64,000 nt of DNA from a phage, in the NCBI GenBank assembly GCA_012646185.1, contig GCA_012646185.1_4706.1, one strand, 5' to 3'. A program made the translations under genes and the position numbers. This document shows positions 35,153 to 47,091 of this stretch, piece after piece (positions within the stretch are counted from its first letter, which is position 1; every line of letters starts with the position of its first letter). The notes below the pieces were generated by a model. That model did no database searches. It was not told the origin of the DNA and saw nothing but the letters and a program-made list of their open reading frames with translations.

Positions 35153-38100
35153 TTATCTTACGTTATTGCTGTTCTGCTGTTCGCTGAACCAACCGTACAC
35201 CTTGAGATCGGTACCGTATTTCAATGCGATATACGCATTCAGTGCGGCACAGAACAAAGACGCGAATGCCCATATCAGCGAAGGATCAACATCTTCCGTT
35301 ACCACCGGGAGAGTATTATCCGGTTCCCATGATGGAGAACTGTCCATGAACGTCGTGACCATTACTCGCCGTTGTTCTTCGGTGGTAAAGTCGCTATGAG
35401 GTTCCAACGCTTCTTTTGCCAGACGTCGATATTCGAACATATGCGTTGCTAAAGCCGATGAGTTACCAGATTCGCCTTCATAGTTCGGATCCACCGCATA
35501 ACAGAGTTCTGTTGAATCTAACAAAGCAACCGCCTGTGTGATGCTGTCGGCAGTGCCTGCACCATAGAGTTCGATAGACCGCGAAAGCTTCTCACAGAAC
35601 GCATCCAACGCGGCAGGATTGGACACCTGAAGGTCAAGGCCTAATGTCCACGGATAGTTACTGAATACACCCGTAAACCGCGGCATAACACCCAACAGAT
35701 GTTGTCCGATTACAGCACGGTTATAAACAGCCCGGTTATAGACTTGAAACGCAGCCTCCAAAGCTTGGTTATAATGACGACGAAGTTCGTCACGAGAGTT
35801 GCGGAACCTGTTTGCCGCAAGACTCGTGGCTGCGACGCTACAAACATCGTAATTGGTGGACGAGAGCACAGTTTCGTTAAGATCGAACGCTTCCTGTTTC
35901 AACGATCCGCTAACCGCTGCTGCTTCGCTGTTTGCTTTATCGACAACAGTACTCAAAGCGTTGATGTAACGTTTAGCTCGGACTTCCAGCCATTGTGCGA
36001 TGCCGAGAACATCCACAGCGGCTTTAGCAAGGTCACGCGCGTTCACGATTTCGTTCTTCAAGGCACCCAACCCTTTATTCTCAGGCGAAGAGGCTTGTTG
36101 ACGAATCATGCTGTTTAACATGGTAAGCAGATTATCCAACTCGTGCCCACTGACCTTGTTACGCGCATCGGTAATCGGCCCTTGCAGGAATTTACGGCAA
36201 CCATCGTTGTATCGAATCAGTTTATCCACATCGATAGATTCGTTCGTGGATTCCTTGAACTGATCCTTCAATTCTTCACGGTAGTCATGGATTTCACTTG
36301 CGAGATTATCGATAGTGATACCATCATGTCCAAGAAGAACTTTATTGAAGTTACCTTTCTCGAATGCCAGAGCAAGACCTTCACGAATCTTAGCGAGTTT
36401 ATCCTGATCAAGTTCACGACCGTTCGATAGCTCTTTCACTTCCGAGCTGATTAATGCCGAAACGTTACCCAGATTGTCGGTAACCCCTTTGAACGCTCCC
36501 GACCAGATCGTTCCTGCTTCAGCGTATTTCGCAATGGTCTGAATACCGACGGTGTGCAGCGACGCTAAACGTTTCTTCGTGCCTTCGGTAAGCAGAGCGT
36601 CTTTAGCTCGCGTAAGCTGGCTGTTATTAGCTTCCGCCTGCTGAATCGCTGCTTTCGCACTTCCATTACGCCAGCTCTTAACCAGCCAATCAACCAAACG
36701 TTTTAGGATGTTGACGGTATATTCCATCGTCCGCCGTAACGTTTCCCACGCGCTTTCTGCGGTATAGATGCCGTACCCTTCCATCTTCAACGCTTTCAAG
36801 CTTGTTTGACGTGCCAGCCATTCTACCGTTGCGGAACAAACGTTTACAAAGGCTTCCAGGTAGGTGTAATAGACGTCTGTTGCCGACGTTTCGTTGAACT
36901 TTGAATGCAGATAGAACTGATCGTAAAGTTCGTCGTCATCGCCGAAGGCATCATAGTTCCACAGTTCTGTATCACAACCTGTACCGCAGAAGACGTCAGC
37001 TGTCGTAAACTCTTTAAGCGCTTTAGCTGCATCATTCGTCAGGAATTTACCCGTTTCGACTACATCGTCGACATTAAGCTTGGGGAGTTCGTCGGTGACT
37101 GGCTCTTCCAACATCAGCATATTGAAGAATGTGCTGTACTTGTATCCGAGCCATTTTGGATAACTGCTTTCAGGGATCGTAGACAACGGCTTGATTTTCT
37201 TGGCTTCAGCCAATGTGTCTTTTGCGACCTGATATTGGTTTTCCCCAGCCTTGACGCGACGTAATGCTTTTTCTTCCAACTGCTTAAGCTTGGCATGGCG
37301 TGCTTGTGCTGGAGCTTCAACAAGTTTTTGTACTGACCGCATTGCAGAAATCGCTTCTTTTAATACGATCATCGGCATACGAACTTTGCCGTCGTCGAAA
37401 CTAAGAGCGCGAGCGACACGTTTACTTACGACAGGCTTATCATGGATATTTCGTTCCACCCATGATTTGTTTGCGTAAGTTTGAGCGATCTGCTGTTGGA
37501 TATTTTCAAGGTATTTCCAGCCGTTGGAAGCTTTGTTATCCAGAAGCGGATTCGGTCCCTTCTTATCGAAAAGTTTCAGAATCGGACCAAAGAAACCTTC
37601 CTGTACGAGTTCGATACGCGTGTATCCGTCAGCCGCTTCGATTTCTTCTTGGGTTTTGTCCCAGAGCTGTTCACTACGGACAGCAGTAGCTGTTTCAGAT
37701 ACCGACATAACAAGCTCGGCAACAACTTCAGCACAGGTCAGTACGGTACGCACGCATTGCACTAGCATACGCTGGTAAACGATACGTGCGTTTTGTAGAC
37801 GTGCGATAACCGCTAAATAACCGATATTGTCAAGACGTTCGTCGGCTTGAGCAGAGTCGACACGTTCTATCAGTTGTTTAACCAGCGCGGCTGTTTCCGG
37901 ATAATCGTTCACGACGTCACGCATAATTCGTGATGCGAAAACCGCGGTACCTAAAACGTTAAGAAGTGTTTTACCGTCCCATTCTTTTGGTGTCGCTACC
38001 GATTCGGTAGGGATGAGATTTCCCGCTTGATCGAAGTATGGCATAAGGACATTGATATCCGTAGACGGTACTGCGGTGATTGCGTTGTACTCTTCATCCG

Positions 38101-38758
38101 CACCATCGTTGCCAGACGGCTGTAATGCAAGTGCTTGTTCAAGGATTTTGCGGTCAACAGCATAAAGCGCCGACAGAGCCTGTGTTACCGCAACCAGATC
38201 AACGATCGGCGACCAGAGCTGTGCGAGCTTACCTTCGTATTTCTGTACAGCGATAGCAAGGTCTTCTTTTACGTCAGGATGATTGATTAAACCACCCAGC
38301 GCTTCATGGATTGCAGAAAAACGTTCAGAATGTGCTTGAGTTAATGCAACAAAATCGTCAACGTACGATGCATTTTCTTCAAGGCGTGCAAGTTCCTGCT
38401 CCAGAAGATCTTTTACTTGCGTGGCGGATGCGTTTCTCAGCTGTTCCCCGATAATCGCGATGGCTTTATCGACAACACGACAAGCTTCATTGAAGCCTGT
38501 CGTTGAAGGTAACTCGGTCCATAATGCCAGCGGCTTACCTTCCATTGCGTCAGGAAGGGAATATGACAACATTGCTAGTTGTTGACGTGATACCTGTTTG
38601 TCACGATGTAACGTTTCTTTCAACGCCAGAAGCTCATCAAGACCCACACTGCTAGGGATCGTGGGATGTGATACGGCGTTGATATTTTCTGTCAATGACT
38701 CAAGAACCAATAAACCATTTTCAGCGGAAGATAACCCTGCTTTAAGGTATTTGTTCAT
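35153..38758 (-). CDS. very large helical protein (1201 aa) sharing ELVQEGF motif with 38840..41632
   Basis: Long ORF; ACGGAG 7 nt upstream; internal RIELVQEGFFGPILKLF; hydrophobic C-terminal segment LIWAFASLFCAALNAYIALKY; a tape-measure role is not excluded. Confidence 0.8.
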   Translation of the reverse strand: MNKYLKAGLSSAENGLLVLESLTENINAVSHPTIPSSVGLDELLALKETLHRDKQVSRQQLAMLSYSLPDAMEGKPLALWTELPSTTGFNEACRVVDKAIAIIGEQLRNASATQVKDLLEQELARLEENASYVDDFVALTQAHSERFSAIHEALGGLINHPDVKEDLAIAVQKYEGKLAQLWSPIVDLVAVTQALSALYAVDRKILEQALALQPSGNDGADEEYNAITAVPSTDINVLMPYFDQAGNLIPTESVATPKEWDGKTLLNVLGTAVFASRIMRDVVNDYPETAALVKQLIERVDSAQADERLDNIGYLAVIARLQNARIVYQRMLVQCVRTVLTCAEVVAELVMSVSETATAVRSEQLWDKTQEEIEAADGYTRIELVQEGFFGPILKLFDKKGPNPLLDNKASNGWKYLENIQQQIAQTYANKSWVERNIHDKPVVSKRVARALSFDDGKVRMPMIVLKEAISAMRSVQKLVEAPAQARHAKLKQLEEKALRRVKAGENQYQVAKDTLAEAKKIKPLSTIPESSYPKWLGYKYSTFFNMLMLEEPVTDELPKLNVDDVVETGKFLTNDAAKALKEFTTADVFCGTGCDTELWNYDAFGDDDELYDQFYLHSKFNETSATDVYYTYLEAFVNVCSATVEWLARQTSLKALKMEGYGIYTAESAWETLRRTMEYTVNILKRLVDWLVKSWRNGSAKAAIQQAEANNSQLTRAKDALLTEGTKKRLASLHTVGIQTIAKYAEAGTIWSGAFKGVTDNLGNVSALISSEVKELSNGRELDQDKLAKIREGLALAFEKGNFNKVLLGHDGITIDNLASEIHDYREELKDQFKESTNESIDVDKLIRYNDGCRKFLQGPITDARNKVSGHELDNLLTMLNSMIRQQASSPENKGLGALKNEIVNARDLAKAAVDVLGIAQWLEVRAKRYINALSTVVDKANSEAAAVSGSLKQEAFDLNETVLSSTNYDVCSVAATSLAANRFRNSRDELRRHYNQALEAAFQVYNRAVYNRAVIGQHLLGVMPRFTGVFSNYPWTLGLDLQVSNPAALDAFCEKLSRSIELYGAGTADSITQAVALLDSTELCYAVDPNYEGESGNSSALATHMFEYRRLAKEALEPHSDFTTEEQRRVMVTTFMDSSPSWEPDNTLPVVTEDVDPSLIWAFASLFCAALNAYIALKYGTDLKVYGWFSEQQNSNNVR

Positions 38759-38839: not shown

Positions 38840-41632
38840 TTACGCTAATTTACCGAAACCGGCCTTCTGTAGTTTCTCGTTGATCAGTTTTGCTTCAGCG
38901 AAAACATAATCACGATACGCAGTGACTAATCCGTCCACCCGTGAACGCAAGGCTTCTTCGAAGCTATACCACGCAGCGATTTCACGAATCTGTGCGTTGA
39001 TATAATCAACGGTTGAGCGAAGCTCGGTTGCGTTTTCTTGCGGAATGGCTTTCACCTGGCGAGCAACGTCATTTAAACGACGGAACTGTGTTTCGATTTC
39101 TTTAAACTTACTGTCAGCAAGTTTGCTGAATTCGTCACCGGAACGGGTAAATAACAGATAGCTGTTGCCGTCAAGTGCGGTCGCTAACTGCTGAAGTACG
39201 TTGGTGTCCGGATACACAGGAGTACCGCTTTGCAATACTTTCTCACCGAATTCCGCGAAGTCCTTCGGCGGTAAGTGTGCAGACGTTGTCAATTCGTTGA
39301 AACGGAAAGTCAGCGAACTATCATACAACATCCGGTACGCTTCCATACCCTGTTTCATGGTACCGGCCAGGTTAGCCAGACGCGGAGCAATCTCGCCTTC
39401 TTTAGCGCGTTTCTGGTCTTCTAACGCCCCTTCGAGTTCTTTACACTGGTCGTTCAGATACACGATACGATCGGGACGCAGACGACGCATCTCACGAAGA
39501 ATGGTATCCAGCTTACCTTCCTGGAAATAACCTAACGTTAAAGACGTACACGCTTGCTGAAGACGATCGAAGACCGGTAAGGTTACCATCTCCTTACGGA
39601 TACCATCAACAATCGCAGAAACAGCCGAAAGTTTCTGTTCTGTAGTCAATGGAACATCAGAGGCCGACTTGCTGGGCGCACCAACAACGTTACGCATTGC
39701 GTCGGTATCCTCGGTTTTATCAACCTCTTTACGAACATGCTCATCAGGAACATAAACGTTAGCATTACGTTTCGCCTGCTTGATAGCATCGCTGGCCGCT
39801 TTTTCGGTGGCCGCTACGCTATCGGCACGTTTCTTCAAGAGTTCAATAATCCAGAGCACCAGACGACGAATCGCAGTGTAGGCTGTCGTGATGATGACGC
39901 CGATAACAGCCATCTTCATGATACCGAACGATTCCATGGTCGGCTCTAACGCTTGGTCTGGCATATACCGTTCACGCAGTTCCAGATAGATCTGCTCATC
40001 TGGTTTGCTGACCTCACCACGATGCGAAGTACGATAGATGGCTTCGTCAATCTCAACAAGATCTTTGCGGGCCTGGCGATCGGATTCTGTTAAGTAAGCA
40101 CAACCGGATACATCATCTTCGAAGCTTAAGAATTTGAAAAAGTCACTGACGTCGATCTTGATCTTCTTCGCTTCATTGTCAACGTTAATGAAATCCGTTT
40201 TACGAGACTGCTGTTGAATCTTAATATCCTTTATCGGTTTAAGCGCTTTGTCTTTTAATGCCTGCATGATCTGTTTCCAGCTGGCATCGCGTTCAAGAAC
40301 AAGGAAATAGTTCTTGAGTTCGAATGCGCGATAGCGGACAACAAGTTGTTCTACCTGGACATGAGCGAGTTGTACGTCCATCAGCCAACGCGACAGCGCA
40401 GAAACCAAACGGCTATACGCAAGCAGCGTCTGGTACGTCAGCTTCATGTGTTTCTCGTAGAGCTCAATGTCTCCGCCCTGGATGTCGGCTGTCGGGTTCA
40501 TTTCCTTCGTTGCTTTGAAGACTTGTTCGGCTTCATTCAGCATTTGCTCAAACTTGACTTCATTGAACGCGTTGAATGGTTCGGCCAGTTCGTTCATCCG
40601 ATCGTGTAGTTCGCGAACCCAAGCTTCTTTGTGATTACGAATGACCGCATCAGCGTGGAGTTCGGTTTGATGTTTCTGTACCCATTCTTCAATGATATCC
40701 GCAGCTGCAACAACACCTGTGTTGTCAGAAATCAATGGGATGACGTTAGAGAGCGTACCCGCACATGCTGGCGTTTTCCAATGATCATTAAGTGTGTTGC
40801 GGAACGTAATGATGTCCGTCATTGACGTAGTGATATCGAGGAACGTGTTACCGTTACGACTCATGCTTGTGATGTTTGTGGCAAACGTCTTTTGTTGTTC
40901 TACAACGAATGGAATCAACGCCATCAACCAATCAGCAATACACTGTGCTTTTTCTTTCAGGTTTTTGTCGGCGATTTCTTTGAGATTAATTGCGCCGCCG
41001 TACCCCGCAAGTTCGTTATACACATCGTTCAAGGTCATCTGCGCATCAAGCATTTCTTTGAAACGCGGATAATCTTCCCCTAACGCATCGATGATATCCT
41101 GGATAACGTCGTCGGTTGTAGCGATAAATTTCTTCGTGTCGACTTTAGATTTCCAGATTATTTTCACCGCTTCTTTCATAACGGTGAACATGATCTGCCA
41201 AATACGCTTAATAAGTTCCCAGACTTTCTTCGCACCATCGACAAACAGTTTAGAGATCTTGGCAACGAATCCTTCCTGCACTAACTCAACGCCGTTACGT
41301 GATGGGATTTCCGTGAAGAAAGCATCCGGCAGTTGTTTCGGGAATGCGTCACCAAGACGCATACGCAGTTCCGGTACATCAGCACGAGAAATACCGCGTG
41401 TTACTAATTGTTCGTGAAGACGAACGTTTTCTTCACCAGCAGCCACGAATTCATTAACGTCGAAGGAGACCATTGCTTCCTGATCTTCGGTGGTAACAAC
41501 GCTTGAACCGTCGCTGGTTTGGATGTCTTCGTCAGGGAACGCCATGAGCATACCGTGACGCATTTCAACCACTCCGTAATCGGTTGCTAAACCGAATTCG
41601 TTGTGGTCGGGAGTAATAACTGGGATACTCAT
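38840..41632 (-). CDS. large helical protein (930 aa), paralog-family member
   Basis: ATGA overlap with upstream gene; NGVELVQEGFVAKISKLF...KKVWELIKRIW near residue 115 matches the family motif. Confidence 0.8.
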   Translation of the reverse strand: MSIPVITPDHNEFGLATDYGVVEMRHGMLMAFPDEDIQTSDGSSVVTTEDQEAMVSFDVNEFVAAGEENVRLHEQLVTRGISRADVPELRMRLGDAFPKQLPDAFFTEIPSRNGVELVQEGFVAKISKLFVDGAKKVWELIKRIWQIMFTVMKEAVKIIWKSKVDTKKFIATTDDVIQDIIDALGEDYPRFKEMLDAQMTLNDVYNELAGYGGAINLKEIADKNLKEKAQCIADWLMALIPFVVEQQKTFATNITSMSRNGNTFLDITTSMTDIITFRNTLNDHWKTPACAGTLSNVIPLISDNTGVVAAADIIEEWVQKHQTELHADAVIRNHKEAWVRELHDRMNELAEPFNAFNEVKFEQMLNEAEQVFKATKEMNPTADIQGGDIELYEKHMKLTYQTLLAYSRLVSALSRWLMDVQLAHVQVEQLVVRYRAFELKNYFLVLERDASWKQIMQALKDKALKPIKDIKIQQQSRKTDFINVDNEAKKIKIDVSDFFKFLSFEDDVSGCAYLTESDRQARKDLVEIDEAIYRTSHRGEVSKPDEQIYLELRERYMPDQALEPTMESFGIMKMAVIGVIITTAYTAIRRLVLWIIELLKKRADSVAATEKAASDAIKQAKRNANVYVPDEHVRKEVDKTEDTDAMRNVVGAPSKSASDVPLTTEQKLSAVSAIVDGIRKEMVTLPVFDRLQQACTSLTLGYFQEGKLDTILREMRRLRPDRIVYLNDQCKELEGALEDQKRAKEGEIAPRLANLAGTMKQGMEAYRMLYDSSLTFRFNELTTSAHLPPKDFAEFGEKVLQSGTPVYPDTNVLQQLATALDGNSYLLFTRSGDEFSKLADSKFKEIETQFRRLNDVARQVKAIPQENATELRSTVDYINAQIREIAAWYSFEEALRSRVDGLVTAYRDYVFAEAKLINEKLQKAGFGKLA

Positions 41633-42069
41633 GCATTCTCTCCTTGCAGTGCGTTAGCGAAAGCCGTTGCAAGTTGTGCAACCAGTTTCGGATCAACGCC
41701 TTCGATAACGTCAGGCAGCCCTGCGGTTTCTTGGTCACGAACAGCGGAGGCTAATAACAGCATGGTTTCAGGTGCGGTTGGCTCATGCACCATGCGGTAA
41801 CGCAGGCACCAGAAGTAGCGAGCAACGTCTAACGCATCAGCCAGCCCAATAACCAGCACCTTGTTCAGCTTATCCAACCCTTCACGGATTTTAGGGAGAT
41901 GTTCACGAACGAAAATGCTATCTGCGGTCAGATCTTCTTTTTCAGCGAATACGGGCATGCTGTAACCAGCGATATAACCTGCGGCAATACTTAGCGCACG
42001 GGTCTGTTGTTCGGCTGGGAAATCACGTACCAGGTCTTTCAGCTGAACGGCGAAATCAGAAATATTCAT
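41629..42069 (-). CDS. hypothetical protein (146 aa)
   Basis: ORF with AAGGA 8 nt upstream. Confidence 0.7.
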   Translation of the reverse strand: MNISDFAVQLKDLVRDFPAEQQTRALSIAAGYIAGYSMPVFAEKEDLTADSIFVREHLPKIREGLDKLNKVLVIGLADALDVARYFWCLRYRMVHEPTAPETMLLLASAVRDQETAGLPDVIEGVDPKLVAQLATAFANALQGENA

Positions 42070-42102
42070 GTTAAATTCCTTTATAGTAGAAGGTGAATTA
42101 GG

Positions 42103-43413
42103 TTACGCGACGACAGAGTCGAGTTTCGCTGACACTTTGAACAGATCGTTGTTCATTGTGGAAGAAAGGACTTGTTGAATTTCTTCCTGTTTAACGGCTT
42201 TACGAACCCCAGGACGAAGGATAAGCGTAACCATCTGTGAAAAGGTACGATTATTGTTCATCGCACTCAGCGTTTCATCGATTGTTTTGATGGTATCCAG
42301 CGTCATGGAACGAACATCGCTTGGGATATCACGATCTTTCAAGCGTATAATTAAATCTTGTTTGATTTTACGGAATCGTTCCATGTCGTTATCGTAAATG
42401 CTGTATGTTGGATCTAACCAAACAGAAAGCGCGGTTACGGCCACAACAACCAACACACCGATAGCGCCAACAGAAGCTAAACCTATCGCCATCATAGAGG
42501 CTATAGTAGCATCCATGATGAAGGAGAGCCAGAACATCGTTTTGGACTTCATGGAGTTGGTGCCATAAAGCCGATACATTTTAGCAAGCCCGCTAACGAG
42601 ATACTCCCCACTACCGTGACGCGTAGCGAACTGATCAGCCATGAATTCGGAAGCAACGTCAGTGTATCGACCAGCATTGTTTACATTTCGTAACTGCATT
42701 GCTCTGTTAGACACGTAAACCGTGTACCAGACACTACCATCGTCTGAATCACTGATTTTGTCTACGTCAACGTTGGTATCCAACGTTTTGTTTAACGCTT
42801 TCGCCAGTTCGATACGTTTTACCTTATCGGTTGTTCCCAACAGTTCACGCTGTACGGTCATGATCGAGGCTTCGACACGAACCGTTTCTGATAATGTTTC
42901 AAGGAAAGTAAATGCGTGCCCGATTTCATGCAGCATTATGGCTGCTTTTTCTTCCGGAAGAAAGGGTTCTGTCGCTGTTAGCAGTTCATACGTGATGGCA
43001 GAACGAATCTTCAACTCCTCAAAGATACCGTAAACACGACCTTTTTCTAAATCGACGTAACCGACAGGTGCATCTTTAATCTTCTTAAGGAGTGCGACAC
43101 CATCAGCACCACGCATCCATAACCGATGATAGTCCGCCAGGATCGTGTTGTTTGTCGAAATATCCGGTGGGTACACGTAGGCGTTCATCTGGCCCATTTT
43201 CATGTCGACCGAGAATTCGATGTTCAACCCCGTATAGCGTTTAACCATCTCGGTTAAACGACCGTCCTTGAAAACGTTTAAAACCTCTTTTTTATCCAGT
43301 CCCTGTTTGCTTCTGAAGAACTCGGTCATTTCCTTGAACAAGGAACCATCTTGAAACTTGATGGCTTCCATCGTTAATTCGTCATGACCATACACGCGTT
43401 GTAGTAATGACAT
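42103..43413 (-). CDS. putative membrane-associated zinc metallopeptidase (HExxH)
   Basis: Motif AAIMLHEIGHAFTFLETLSE (HExxH plus downstream Glu) followed by a hydrophobic segment about 40 residues long (MFWLSFIMDATIASMMAIGLASVGAIGVLVVVAVTALSVWL). Confidence 0.55.
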   Translation of the reverse strand: MSLLQRVYGHDELTMEAIKFQDGSLFKEMTEFFRSKQGLDKKEVLNVFKDGRLTEMVKRYTGLNIEFSVDMKMGQMNAYVYPPDISTNNTILADYHRLWMRGADGVALLKKIKDAPVGYVDLEKGRVYGIFEELKIRSAITYELLTATEPFLPEEKAAIMLHEIGHAFTFLETLSETVRVEASIMTVQRELLGTTDKVKRIELAKALNKTLDTNVDVDKISDSDDGSVWYTVYVSNRAMQLRNVNNAGRYTDVASEFMADQFATRHGSGEYLVSGLAKMYRLYGTNSMKSKTMFWLSFIMDATIASMMAIGLASVGAIGVLVVVAVTALSVWLDPTYSIYDNDMERFRKIKQDLIIRLKDRDIPSDVRSMTLDTIKTIDETLSAMNNNRTFSQMVTLILRPGVRKAVKQEEIQQVLSSTMNNDLFKVSAKLDSVVA

Positions 43414-43634
43414 TGTACACTCTCTAAATTTACGTAAATTTAAGGGCTAATGGATCGGCTGGCCGCACCAATCACAATGTGTCCGCTGCTATGCAACGGC
43501 ATTCATAGAAATACCTTTTGACGGTAACATCACCCATCACACCCCAAGCAATAAGAGTGGTCGGTTAAAAACAACAGAACGTGGGGATGATATAGAAAAT
43601 CACCTTTTAACACTTATTACGAGTTTATCAAGCC
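43414..43634. promoter_or_regulatory. divergent intergenic region (strand switch, candidate promoters)
   Basis: 220-bp ORF-free spacer between the divergent starts of 42103..43413 and 43635..45134. Confidence 0.4.
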
Positions 43635-45134
43635 ATGAGCGAACAAGAACGAAAACCTAAGAAGAAACTGCTCGGTATTCAATGTCGACACATCAGCTAT
43701 AACGAAGCGAACGACGGCAGCAAGAACGACCTCATGATCGCAAAAGAGATCATGTTCTTTGATGACAATACGCAAGCGACGAACCTTCGCTTCTTTGAGA
43801 ATTACAAACGTCCGTTTTGGGTGACGGTAGAGAGTAAACGTAAGAACAAATATAAAAAGGAAAGCGAGAAGCTCTCGCATGTGCGTCGCTATGATGTCCG
43901 CCAAAGTGAACTGGTTGAAAAGATCAGTTCGGTGCTTTATAAAAGACGTGCTGACGATAACACCCGTTTACAGCAGCTTGCACGGAGTCCATACCTCTAC
44001 GGCACGGACGTTAGCGCCAGCTGTTATTTAAAAACCCAGTACAACACAAAATGGCCGGAATACGTCGATAAATTACCCGCTTCCATTGCCTGTTTCGATA
44101 TCGAAACCGACGTTGTCCATGGACATGGTAAGATCGTTTGTATGTCTATTACAATGGGATACAATGCGATACTTTGCTATACCAAGGACTTCGTTGGTCA
44201 TATTCCGAATGCGATTGAGAAAACCCATGAGAAGATTCGATATTACCTGGCCGAACGTCTGAATACCAAAGAAGATCCTCATGCGTTCGAAAAATATCAG
44301 TACGATGTGCGAATCGTAGAAAGTCCGGCACAAGCAGTCATCCAATGCATGCAGAAGGTTCACGAATGGCAGCCGGATTATCTCCTTGGCTGGAATATCG
44401 CGTTCGATATTCCGCGCATGCTCCAGGCACTGAACGAGGAAGGGTATCGTCCCGAGGATGTTTTCTCCGATCCTCGTGTACCCCCTAAGTATCGTATTGC
44501 TCGCTGGGTACCACCGAAGACCGACAAGGTATCTGCTTCAGGCCGTAAAACCAACCTTACCCTCGAGCAGACCTGGCCGATGTTTTATACGATGGCTACG
44601 TATCAGGTTATGGATGCGATGTGTGGTTATAAGTTCGTTCGTTTAGGAAGACCGGATGAGGGACGCTATTCACTCGATGCGGTGTTAGAGCGTAATAAAT
44701 GCCATACGAAATTAAAAGCGATTCCTGGTACAGAAGGGTTCACGGAGCTCGCCTGGCACGAAGAGATGCAAACGAACCATCAAATCGACTACGGCGTATA
44801 TAACCTTTGGGATAACCAAGGTATTGAGGCGTTGGACCAGAAAACAAAAGACTATTCGATGACCATCCCGATTCGTTTAGCGGCGTCGGATTTGAAAGAT
44901 TTCAGTTCCAACCCTAAACGTATCTGCGATAAACTTTTCTTCGTGTATCTTAACCGTGGGGAAGTCATGGGATGCACCGCCGACGACATGACCCAGGAAG
45001 AAGATAAGTGGGTTATCTCACGAACCGGACATATCGTCACATTACCATGCGATCTCATGGCGGACAACGGCATTCATCTCTTCTGGGATATGCCTAATTT
45101 AAGGAGCTATATTCGATTATTTGTTGCGGATTAA
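43635..45134 (+). CDS. DEDDy 3'-5' exonuclease domain protein, family B DNA polymerase N-terminal-like
   Basis: Exo I ACFDIETD, Exo II LLGWNIAFDIPRML, Exo III GRYSLDAV in canonical order and spacing; no polymerase palm motifs seen downstream. Confidence 0.65.
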   Translation: MSEQERKPKKKLLGIQCRHISYNEANDGSKNDLMIAKEIMFFDDNTQATNLRFFENYKRPFWVTVESKRKNKYKKESEKLSHVRRYDVRQSELVEKISSVLYKRRADDNTRLQQLARSPYLYGTDVSASCYLKTQYNTKWPEYVDKLPASIACFDIETDVVHGHGKIVCMSITMGYNAILCYTKDFVGHIPNAIEKTHEKIRYYLAERLNTKEDPHAFEKYQYDVRIVESPAQAVIQCMQKVHEWQPDYLLGWNIAFDIPRMLQALNEEGYRPEDVFSDPRVPPKYRIARWVPPKTDKVSASGRKTNLTLEQTWPMFYTMATYQVMDAMCGYKFVRLGRPDEGRYSLDAVLERNKCHTKLKAIPGTEGFTELAWHEEMQTNHQIDYGVYNLWDNQGIEALDQKTKDYSMTIPIRLAASDLKDFSSNPKRICDKLFFVYLNRGEVMGCTADDMTQEEDKWVISRTGHIVTLPCDLMADNGIHLFWDMPNLRSYIRLFVAD

Positions 45135-45165
45135 CCTTCGTTCTGTAAAAACTTACCGATATATA

Positions 45166-45211
45166 GAAATTACTGTGAGATACCAAAGGTACTCGTAAGT
45201 TTAGTAATTTC
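45166..45211 (+). other. hairpin (9-bp stem GAAATTACT/AGTAATTTC, 28-nt loop) between exonuclease gene and HNH gene
   Basis: Read directly from sequence; could be a terminator or part of an intron 5' structure. Confidence 0.4.
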
Positions 45212-45227
45212 TGAGCGGTAGGTAAAT

Positions 45228-46364
45228 ATGTTGGAACATCTTGAACATTTAGACAATGAATACTTAAATTTCACCAATCGTCGTTATCGTATCTTCGAAG
45301 ACGGTACACTTTACGATTACAAAGAGAATTGTAAAGTACCTGTTATAATAGAAGATAACAACTCTTACGTTATTATCGATTGGTATCGTGGGGTTGGTAA
45401 ATACGAATTGGGGATGATCATGCTTACAGCATTTGATCGCATCCACATTCCTAACTATCTTTACGATGAAATTGAATCGTTGTTTATTGATAACGACCCG
45501 ACGAACTTTTCGTATAGTAACCACATCTATCGTTTCCGTAATGGACCGCTGGCTGTGGAAGGGTATCCGGGATATTACTACATCCCGTTTGCCACGTACT
45601 ATGCGCTAAATGAACAAGGTGAATGTTTAAGTCTTTTGTCTGGGGAAGGTATAACGTGGACAATGACGCAGCAAAACGGTACGCGGCGTCCCGGCTATCG
45701 ATACAGAAAGGTAACACCTGATAGCGGTTTTACGGCTCAGCTGTATCGTCATCGAGCGATGATGTTGACGTTTCGTCGTTACGACGCAAGCGTTGTGGAA
45801 ATGACCGTTAATCACAAGAACGGTATTAAAGGCGATGATTGGCTGGATAACCTGGAATGGGCAACCTACAAGGAAAACAACAATCATGCGCGTATAAACG
45901 GTTTATGTGACGGCAAAGCGAAACCTATCAAGATCTTTGATTATAATCGTCATACCGAACGTCATTTCAAGAGCATCGCTGAGGCGGAACGTGCGTATCC
46001 ACACGTAGCAAAAGGACGTTTCAAATGGTGGGTTGAAAATCCACCGAAACGTATACCTGAATGTAACCTCTACATCAAACATGCGTTCGATAATACTCCG
46101 TGGCCTGAATGGAAACTGGGTGATGAACGACGTATTGAAGATGTAGCGGGTATTCCGATTATCGCCCTTAACATGGTTACAGGCGAGAAACGAGTGTATT
46201 CATCGGTTACAGCTGCGGGTAAGGATACGAAAACAAGTTGGATAACAGTACGACGTCACTGTGATAAGCGTGTCGTTCCTGTTAAACAAGCATGGTGTTT
46301 CCGTTATGCTGACGACGTCAAAAACATGCCTGAGTTAACTTCCCTACCAACAATCGAACAGTAA
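45228..46364 (+). CDS. HNH homing endonuclease
   Basis: HNH signature TVNHKNGIKGDDWLDNLEWATYKENNNHA; C-terminal repeated DNA-binding-like modules (SIAEAERAYPHVAKGRFKWW, SVTAAGKDTKTSWITVRR); gene visibly more AT-rich than its surroundings. Confidence 0.85.
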   Translation: MLEHLEHLDNEYLNFTNRRYRIFEDGTLYDYKENCKVPVIIEDNNSYVIIDWYRGVGKYELGMIMLTAFDRIHIPNYLYDEIESLFIDNDPTNFSYSNHIYRFRNGPLAVEGYPGYYYIPFATYYALNEQGECLSLLSGEGITWTMTQQNGTRRPGYRYRKVTPDSGFTAQLYRHRAMMLTFRRYDASVVEMTVNHKNGIKGDDWLDNLEWATYKENNNHARINGLCDGKAKPIKIFDYNRHTERHFKSIAEAERAYPHVAKGRFKWWVENPPKRIPECNLYIKHAFDNTPWPEWKLGDERRIEDVAGIPIIALNMVTGEKRVYSSVTAAGKDTKTSWITVRRHCDKRVVPVKQAWCFRYADDVKNMPELTSLPTIEQ

Positions 46365-46875
46365 CGATAACAGGTCCCCCTACTTGTAATGAGTGGGTGA
46401 ACTCTCTTTAATTGCTGGAAACCTTTAATGCCCCTCCACACCACAACGCAATCCGAAAGGGTAAACGTGATGGTTGTCGAAAGACAGAAAAAAGTTGGAG
46501 GGGATTACCTAAGCTGAAATAAAAGCCGTTACTTTCTGGATATGGAAAGAGTCTAACGGTGCTAAGGGTCCTGCTAGAAATAAGGTAACCGTAGCAGCGA
46601 AGACCCTACGGACTGTCGTGACCGACTCGATGAGTTGGCGTGGTTAACACGGACAGGCTACGGGTAACGTTCAACGACCATCCGGTTGCGCGGAGTAGGA
46701 GAATTAGGATGTTCTCCGAAAAGGGAGAAGTCGGTCGAGGTGTTGTAGAAACACCGTTGCTTTGCTTCGCAAACATAAGACAGGCTAAGATATGGTCTAT
46801 ATTAAATGTAATACTATGATGTATAGAATTTAATGGCTCGATATTAGCAGTTCATATCCAAATGGGCAGATCCTG
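46365..46875 (+). ncRNA. structured non-coding region with group I intron catalytic-core-like elements
   Basis: About 510 nt without a credible ORF; R-like GTTCAACGACCA (46669..46680) and S-like AAGATATGGTC (46788..46798) with complementary GACCAT/ATGGTC halves (P7-like); several local hairpins and a long-range CCCCTCCA/TGGAGGGG complement. Confidence 0.35.
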
Positions 46876-47091
46876 TTGAATCTATCCAGAGCATGTGTTT
46901 TTCGTGAGCTCTCACGCATTGAGGGCGTCTCTGACTACCAATTCAGGAAGCTAGGTATCAACTTTATTACCGGAGGTAAAACGAACGCTGTAGACTTCTG
47001 TAGAATCGTTTATAAAGCACCATCGATGTTTGAGCTCTTAGAACATTTCGATGCGACGCGTCCAAAAGAGGAAGCGCGGACCATCGAATGA
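46876..47091 (+). CDS. doubtful small ORF (71 aa, TTG start); possible 3' exon or spurious
   Basis: Frame open from 46834; no SD; no recognisable motif. Confidence 0.2.
   Translation: MNLSRACVFRELSRIEGVSDYQFRKLGINFITGGKTNAVDFCRIVYKAPSMFELLEHFDATRPKEEARTIE

Follow-up and report, generated by a model that had tools for sequence, protein, structure and literature searches.

Where in its life cycle would a phage use a zinc peptidase with a strongly hydrophobic segment, and what would such an enzyme cut? The question is raised by a gene on the minus strand of a 64,000-nucleotide stretch of phage DNA (NCBI GenBank assembly GCA_012646185.1, contig GCA_012646185.1_4706.1), the whole of which is referred to here as the window. 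A preliminary description of the sequence saw the product of this gene as a membrane-associated HExxH metallopeptidase and offered lysis timing, host-protein cleavage or virion protein processing as its function. The comparisons presented below indicate that it is very probably a zincin-type head protein. It is proposed that this M48-like metallopeptidase is packaged, leaves the head together with the DNA and inserts into the membrane of the host or of the early-infection vesicle (EPI vesicle), a chain of events to which, taken as a whole, we assign a probability of about 0.5.

The zincin site and its family

Bases 41500–44000 of the window are 93% identical in nucleotide sequence to Escherichia phage Goslar, a nucleus-forming jumbo phage, and the window protein shares 91.7% identity with Goslar gp067 (YP_009820752). 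Goslar gp067, phiKZ gp84 and SPN3US gp45, all head proteins of chimalliviruses, are full-length orthologs of the window protein with the same gene neighbours; identity to the window protein is 27% for phiKZ gp84 (E 1e-25) and approximately 23% for SPN3US gp45. Residues 12–432 match PHROG 2767 ('unknown function') with E 5.9e-84, and both phiKZ gp84 and SPN3US gp45 match the same PHROG. As judged by sequence comparison, the gene is closely orthologous to that of a known head protein. A tblastn search matched 223 phage records; among the matches listed, all genomes measure 167–307 kb, and many carry the annotation 'virion structural protein'. When 1.84 billion metagenome cluster representatives were searched with a profile, 3,987 members were found, the top 150 of which are nearly all full length.

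The HEIGH sequence was initially read as a classical zincin motif, and it is present at residues 162–166 (nucleotides 42930..42916, in the context AAIMLHEIGHAFTFLE). HExxH on its own carries little weight, because the motif occurs three times in the 30,439 residues of stop-to-stop open reading frames (ORFs) of at least 100 residues in this window. Across 143 homologs with a mean column identity of 27%, H162, E163 and H166 are invariant, together with G129, G165, E256, D260 and R346, while Y340, D341 and E16 are at least 90% conserved. The motif is therefore counted as real. The glutamate noted downstream of it also exists, as E172 in HEIGHAFTFLE (at least 90% conserved in 106 sequences), but the residue at the M48 third-ligand position is a later one, E256 in EFMADQFA. 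The window protein, Goslar gp067, phiKZ gp84 and SPN3US gp45 have a common order of features: (S/A/G)-x-E, HExxH, ExxAD, a hydrophobic hairpin and YDxPxxR.

Single-sequence searches of the window protein against Pfam, NCBIfam and the sequences of the Protein Data Bank (PDB) returned chance-level matches only, and the link to peptidase family M48 emerges only through profiles, many relatives or structure. Pfam Peptidase_M48 is matched at E ≤ 0.01 by 29 of 106 relatives (best 1.6e-5), and any other family by two relatives at most. Aligned with human ZMPSTE24, the family profile gives E 1e-3 with both motifs in the correct order: ...aAilLHEiGH is paired with VLAVLGHELGH, and rssEqlADqFA with RRFEFQADAFA (chain residues 412–442), which therefore puts E256 at the third zinc-ligand position. 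The four M48 proteins of E. coli K-12 (HtpX, BepA, LoiP and YcaL) were taken from the annotated genome and aligned, and HExxH, ExxAD (E222..A225-D226) and HPxxxxR (H276, P277 and R282) are invariant across them. Comparison of the 106-sequence phage family with this set by hhalign gave a probability of 90% and E 1.6e-6 over 36 columns, which span the strand and the HEiGH block.

The AlphaFold2 model is of good quality (predicted local distance difference test score, pLDDT, 80.6; predicted template modelling score, pTM, 0.82) and mostly alpha-helical. It shows what appears to be a zincin layout, with a small sheet (strands 119–141), an active-site helix (153–192) and a helix carrying E256 (252–265). 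Foldseek searches of viral models (BFVD) matched chimallivirus orthologs at E 1e-19 to 1e-13 and, more distantly (E 1e-7 to 3e-4), proteins named 'Zincin protease [Bacillus phage AR9]', 'Peptidase M48 domain-containing protein' and 'Beta-barrel assembly-enhancing protease'. The matches to the AR9 zincin proteases and to the 'beta-barrel assembly-enhancing protease' of Bacillus phage AgentSmith have E 2.4e-7 and 2.6e-4. The AgentSmith protein has the same motifs, hairpin and downstream gene order as the window protein. These Bacillus phage proteins are nevertheless much more diverged (12–14% identity for AR9, in structural alignments), belong to phages of Gram-positive hosts and occur in AR9 as two paralogs.

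M48 gives the best profile matches of the phage family and the best matches of its predicted fold. As in the E. coli proteins, yeast Ste24p and human ZMPSTE24, a beta-strand precedes HExxH on an active-site helix, and the third-ligand glutamate lies in ExxAD, 75–90 residues further on. The phage protein differs in having extra N-terminal (residues 24–112) and C-terminal (residues 343–435) domains, and in being packaged in a virus particle. A further likeness would be the embedding of HtpX and Ste24 in membranes. The hairpin of HtpX lies between HExxH and the glutamate, whereas that of the phage protein is placed after the ExxAD helix.

A separate observation concerns the C-terminal 20 or so residues (42103..42165), which contain a conserved L-x-N-N-D-L-F-x-x-A-A-x-L; N422, L424 and F425 each reach at least 90% conservation in one alignment or more. 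In some small zincin zymogens, the active site is blocked by a C-terminal tail.

Packaging, propeptide and operon partners

Presence in the virion is known for the Goslar and SPN3US orthologs and, from annotation, for that of phiKZ; the window phage is known from its sequence. Purified Goslar virions yielded 19 peptides of gp067, covering 46.8% of the protein and including the active-site peptide (bioRxiv 10.64898/2026.04.21.720040, Table S4). The same study estimated 48 copies per virion (range 32–76), by a label-free method that is rough, proteins with a known 55 copies being estimated at 16 to 194. The main text of that preprint does not mention gp067. For phiKZ gp84, the annotation reads 'structural head protein'.

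SPN3US gp45 likewise belongs to the head. Its N-terminal propeptide, which the SPN3US authors put at 20 residues (at 24 in one passage) and likened to the capsid-targeting sequence of T4, is cut off by the prohead protease gp245. The gp45 sequence reads ...A-S-E20 followed by SIGFQ, in agreement with the published length of 20 residues. In phiKZ, head proteins are cleaved at S/A/G-x-E, with LSxE enriched, and the semi-tryptic ends fit this motif (PMC10449902). Nearly all of 49 aligned homologs of the window protein carry (S/A/G)-x-E and then A or S at residues 8–30, and the Goslar clade, which includes the window protein, has T-M-E16 followed by AIKFQ at this position. A semi-tryptic peptide from Goslar virions that was assigned to gp067, AIKFQDGSLFKEMTEFFR, starts at A17, right after E16, and its sequence is identical in the window; it is a single peptide, with a -10lgP of 48 and an error of 13.7 parts per million. 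We predict a family-wide propeptide that ends in the prohead-protease motif and that comprises 16 residues in the window protein.

The identity of the prohead maturation protease itself, of the T4 gp21, phiKZ gp175 and SPN3US gp245 type, was also considered for the window protein and rejected, as no match to that type appeared in Pfam, PHROG, PDB-sequence or fold searches. The peptidase is a predicted substrate of the prohead serine protease, not a member of that protease type.

Two known systems combine some of these features. The T4 internal proteins that bear a capsid-targeting sequence are a functional analogy, in that the prohead protease cuts off a short propeptide and leaves the mature protein in the head, and they have no sequence relation to the phage peptidase. 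T4 internal proteins are ejected with the DNA; they are not zincins and lack a membrane hairpin. The C1 subdomain of the N4 virion RNA polymerase resembles the phage peptidase in motif and packaging, with a conserved HExxH in a head-packaged protein that is expelled at infection, but there the HExxH module lies within a 3,500-residue polymerase.

The two genes that follow the peptidase gene encode counterparts of Goslar gp066 (99.3% identity for the 146-residue product) and gp065 (84% identity for the 930-residue product). In the Goslar structure from cryo-electron microscopy (cryoEM), gp66 (110 copies) and gp65 (55 copies) are subunits of a 'vertex binding complex' that lies against the inner face of every non-portal vertex (bioRxiv 10.64898/2026.04.21.720040), and this complex is absent from empty, portal-less capsids. 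The Goslar preprint describes gp66 and gp65 as homologous to phiKZ gp85 and gp86. BLASTP found no similarity between the 146- and 930-residue products and these phiKZ proteins, so the homology rests on the Goslar cryoEM comparison together with gene order. A polymerase gene on one side, then the peptidase gene, a gene of about 150 codons and at least one larger gene, and finally a large structural gene on the other strand: this order is kept in Goslar, SPN3US, phiKZ, Erwinia phage Bosolaphorus (RAY-like), Serratia phage PCH45 and Bacillus phage AgentSmith, with the variation that in phiKZ gp83 stands between the polymerase and gp84.

The 930-residue vertex-complex protein has a hydrophobic helix of its own at residues ~570–600, FGIMKMAVIGVIITTAYTAIRRLVLWIIELL. 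SPN3US gp47, encoded at the same gene position, has a predicted transmembrane helix, and its authors proposed that it is ejected. Membrane-type helices in head-internal proteins may recur among the products of this operon.

The hydrophobic hairpin, the proposed pathway and its alternatives

A hydrophobic segment was initially described as following the HEIGH motif. There is a single strongly hydrophobic stretch in the protein, at residues ~291–333 (Kyte–Doolittle 19-residue maximum 2.57), but it begins some 125 residues past HEIGH and does not adjoin it. AlphaFold2 models it as two helices, 291–313 and 317–333. A hydrophobic segment of 35–45 residues between the ExxAD helix and the YD..R motif is found in 48 of 49 homologs, and the phiKZ, SPN3US, Erwinia and Bacillus phage orthologs have the hairpin too. 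The earlier label 'membrane-associated' stands in so far as this hairpin is hydrophobic and conserved, but the protein is very probably a virion head protein and not simply a membrane protein of the infected cell.

The hairpin is also where the window protein and Goslar gp067 mainly part. Twenty of their 36 differences fall in residues 300–330 (42424..42516), that is, 20 of 31 positions (65%) against 16 of 405 (4%) elsewhere, and nearly all of these hairpin differences exchange one hydrophobic residue for another. A segment that stays hydrophobic while its sequence varies freely has the pattern of lipid-facing helices, unlike that of a conserved protein interface. With a two-helix hairpin, the soluble domains would both face the same side of the membrane. 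As an observation in its own right, the divergence could reflect a relaxed constraint on hydrophobicity only, or a small recombination patch.

In the pathway that we favour, the peptidase would be synthesised alongside the inner vertex-complex proteins encoded downstream and taken up into the prohead, where the prohead serine protease would cut the 16-residue propeptide after T-M-E16. Approximately 50 copies would be retained in the DNA-filled head. H162, H166, E163 and E256 would bind zinc and hydrolyse peptide bonds, and at the next infection the protein would be expelled with the DNA, as for many head proteins of these phages. The 40-residue hairpin, situated between the glutamate helix and the C-terminal helical domain, would then anchor it in the inner membrane or in that of the EPI vesicle, where its substrate would be a protein of the host envelope or a phage protein ejected along with it. 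The membrane step is placed most plausibly at the next infection because the head contains no lipid. The injection of many head proteins into a lipid vesicle is a known trait of nucleus-forming phages (PMC10449902). Host-protein cleavage and virion protein processing, both put forward in the preliminary description, are possible tasks for a peptidase of this kind. In phiKZ transposon sequencing, orf84 (1242 bp) received no disruptive insertion, and nine low-read insertions when all reads were counted, compared with a genome average of one insertion per 42 bp.

Several points weigh against this pathway. With regard to the peptidase class, the window protein scores 10.7 bits (E 0.46) against Pfam M48, short of the gathering cut-off of 20.3 bits, and M48 is its nearest cellular family; elsewhere among the phage relatives, SPN3US gp45 scores 19 bits and one hairpin-deleted relative 22.8 bits. 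Foldseek found no significant match of the model in the PDB. The HPxxxxR motif of M48 has no clear counterpart in the phage family, where Tyr-Asp stands at the His-Pro position and there is no His. YDxPxxRxxRI resembles HPxxxxR and might be that motif displaced by the inserted hairpin. In every set-up, hhalign pairs P..R..RIR of YDxPxxRxxRI with HPxxxxR, at a non-significant probability of 8% or less, and deletion of the hairpin in 10 members did not extend the Pfam M48 match past profile position 165 of 186. Because the Pfam cut-off is missed and HPxxxxR lacks a clear counterpart, we class the window protein as an M48-like gluzincin and not as a certified M48 member.

With regard to the later steps, the hydrophobic helix of gp65 belongs to a subunit of an ordered protein complex within the capsid, so that in head proteins of this kind such a helix does not have to imply lipid. 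The gap in transposon insertions over orf84 could be an artefact, since phiKZ orf85–86 likewise lack insertions yet are deletable, which the authors explain by polar effects. The phiKZ proteins so far shown to be injected do not include gp84 (PMC10449902). Among the papers searched, none deals with what phiKZ gp84, Goslar gp67 or any chimallivirus metalloprotease does, and no experiment that shows zinc binding, proteolysis, ejection or membrane insertion was found for any family member.

Proteolysis might instead take place during head maturation. The protein would then be a second head-maturation peptidase in the prohead, chopping the long propeptides released by the serine protease so that they can exit, or trimming vertex-complex proteins, and the hairpin would mediate contacts with proteins or hold the peptidase briefly at a membrane during prohead assembly. 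We regard this as unlikely, though worth serious consideration. It accords with the head location, with the operon held in common with the vertex-complex genes and with the extensive proteolysis of head proteins, phiKZ and 201phi2-1 heads being fully freed of long propeptides. A maturation role of this kind was put forward by Iyer et al. 2021 for 'a conserved, uncharacterized zincin-like metallopeptidase' of phiKZ-like phages, most probably the gp84 family. The mapped SPN3US cleavages, however, are attributed to gp245, which cuts after Glu, with no second specificity reported, and the phiKZ semi-tryptic ends agree with S/A/G-x-E (PMC10449902). Such a role leaves unexplained why a lipid-type hairpin of freely varying sequence is kept from Bacillus to Escherichia phages, and approximately 50 copies of the protein persist in the mature virion.

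A more specific version of packaging and ejection is improbable. Here, five copies of the peptidase would be stored beside gp65 at each non-portal inner capsid vertex, where they would account for unassigned density, and would then be ejected and become integral to the membrane of the early-infection vesicle. Proteolysis would be needed there to build, maintain or open the vesicle, for example through cleavage of inner-membrane proteins of the host, or so that the genome is released to the nascent phage nucleus.

The vertex could also be the whole of the story, with the protein serving only as a structural component of the head: a peripheral, poorly ordered partner of the vertex complex in which the zincin site supports metal-dependent folding or binding. 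The copy estimate is compatible with the 55 copies of vertex-complex subunits, rough as such label-free figures are. The Goslar map contains unassigned alpha-helical density beside gp65 (bioRxiv 10.64898/2026.04.21.720040, Figure S8), and the window protein is mostly alpha-helical; the authors, however, saw a PF12699-like fold in that density. The catalytic base E163 and all three ligands are invariant in the 143 sequences, whereas dead enzymes usually lose at least the base, and we consider a purely structural role quite improbable.

Lysis timing by a membrane protease of the infected cell, for example through processing of a holin or antiholin, draws on the combination of HExxH with a hydrophobic segment and on nothing further, and can practically be set aside for a protein whose orthologs are packaged in virions and trimmed by the prohead protease and that is encoded beside conserved genes for capsid-internal vertex-complex proteins, the more so as the phiKZ lysis cassette (holin gp142, regulator gp143 and endolysin gp144) is encoded elsewhere.

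Genomic setting and biological significance

The coordinates of the gene, of the parts of its product and of its neighbours are collected in Table 1. The peptidase ORF is the first of a minus-strand run encoding proteins of 436, 146, 930 and 1201 residues, as expected for the head of an operon. The divergent region before it, put at 220 bp in the preliminary description, measures 221 bp, and the gene across the gap does belong to replication, encoding a family-B DNA polymerase on the plus strand. A scan for sigma-70-like promoters found no site within this divergent region. The scan says little, because chimalliviruses transcribe with their own RNA polymerases.

Table 1. Positions in the window of the peptidase gene, its predicted product features and the adjoining genes
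Feature	Position	Strand	Basis or comment
Coding sequence, M48-like zinc metallopeptidase and head protein, 436 aa	42103..43413	-	ATG-to-stop ORF; PHROG 2767
N-terminal propeptide (predicted), codons 1–16	43366..43413	-	Prohead protease cut after T-M-E16
HEIGH, aa 162–166: two zinc-ligand His and catalytic Glu	42916..42930	-	Invariance; alignment to M48 HExxH
E256-F-M-A-D260 (ExxAD), predicted third zinc ligand, 'glutamate helix'	42634..42648	-	Invariance; ZMPSTE24 alignment
Hydrophobic helical hairpin, aa 291–333, probably two membrane-spanning helices	42415..42543	-	Hydropathy; AlphaFold2
YDNDMERFRKI, aa 340–350 (Y-D-x-P-x-x-R-x-x-R-I motif), just past the hairpin	42364..42396	-	Conservation
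Second gene, 146 aa, ortholog of Goslar gp066 / phiKZ gp85	41629..42069	-	Capsid inner vertex binding complex subunit
Third gene, 930 aa, ortholog of Goslar gp065 / phiKZ gp86	38840..41632	-	Vertex binding complex subunit
Fourth gene, 1201 aa	35153..38758	-	Goslar gp064 counterpart
Divergent intergenic region, 221 bp, between peptidase and DNA polymerase genes	43414..43634	.	ORF map
Family-B DNA polymerase ORF	43635..45134	+	Divergent from peptidase gene; Pfam/PHROG matches

Two further observations concern the neighbouring genes. The product of the fourth gene, at 1201 residues, is longer than Goslar gp064 (930 residues): the last 544 residues are 98% identical and the first ~390 are 48% identical, with approximately 265 extra residues between them, and 35153..38758 is a mosaic head-protein gene. 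In the Goslar virion, gp064 is present at approximately 110 copies but is not part of the structural model. On the other side of the divergent region, the DNA polymerase gene (43635..47091, plus strand) is apparently split by a group I intron with a homing endonuclease. Residues 3–581 of phiKZ gp82 match 43638..45176 and residues 561–630 match 46837..47049 in a different frame, and an HNH/NUMOD1 ORF lies between the two polymerase parts at 45228..46364. The Rfam model Intron_gpI matches 46326..46817 with 42.5 bits (E 1.1e-8), below its gathering score of 50. In the Goslar record, the matching 3′ polymerase stretch carries no annotated gene.

The prediction of a zincin is already present in database names and most probably in Iyer et al. 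What is added here is the assignment to the neighbourhood of M48, with its limits; where the hairpin lies and how much it varies; a cleavage site found across the family and backed by a peptide from published raw data; and the link to the vertex-complex operon. If the protein were a second maturation protease, the picture of one serine protease performing all head processing would change. If instead it were stored at the vertices and acted in the vesicle, it would be the first phage-encoded membrane component and enzyme of the early-infection vesicle. Nucleus-forming jumbo phages inject their DNA into a lipid vesicle, and the packaged peptidase family is a concrete candidate for a role in early infection: its enzyme site is apparently intact, it has a membrane-type hairpin, it is conserved in jumbo phages that infect Gram-negative hosts as well as in those of Bacillus, and no tolerated transposon insertion was recorded in its phiKZ gene.

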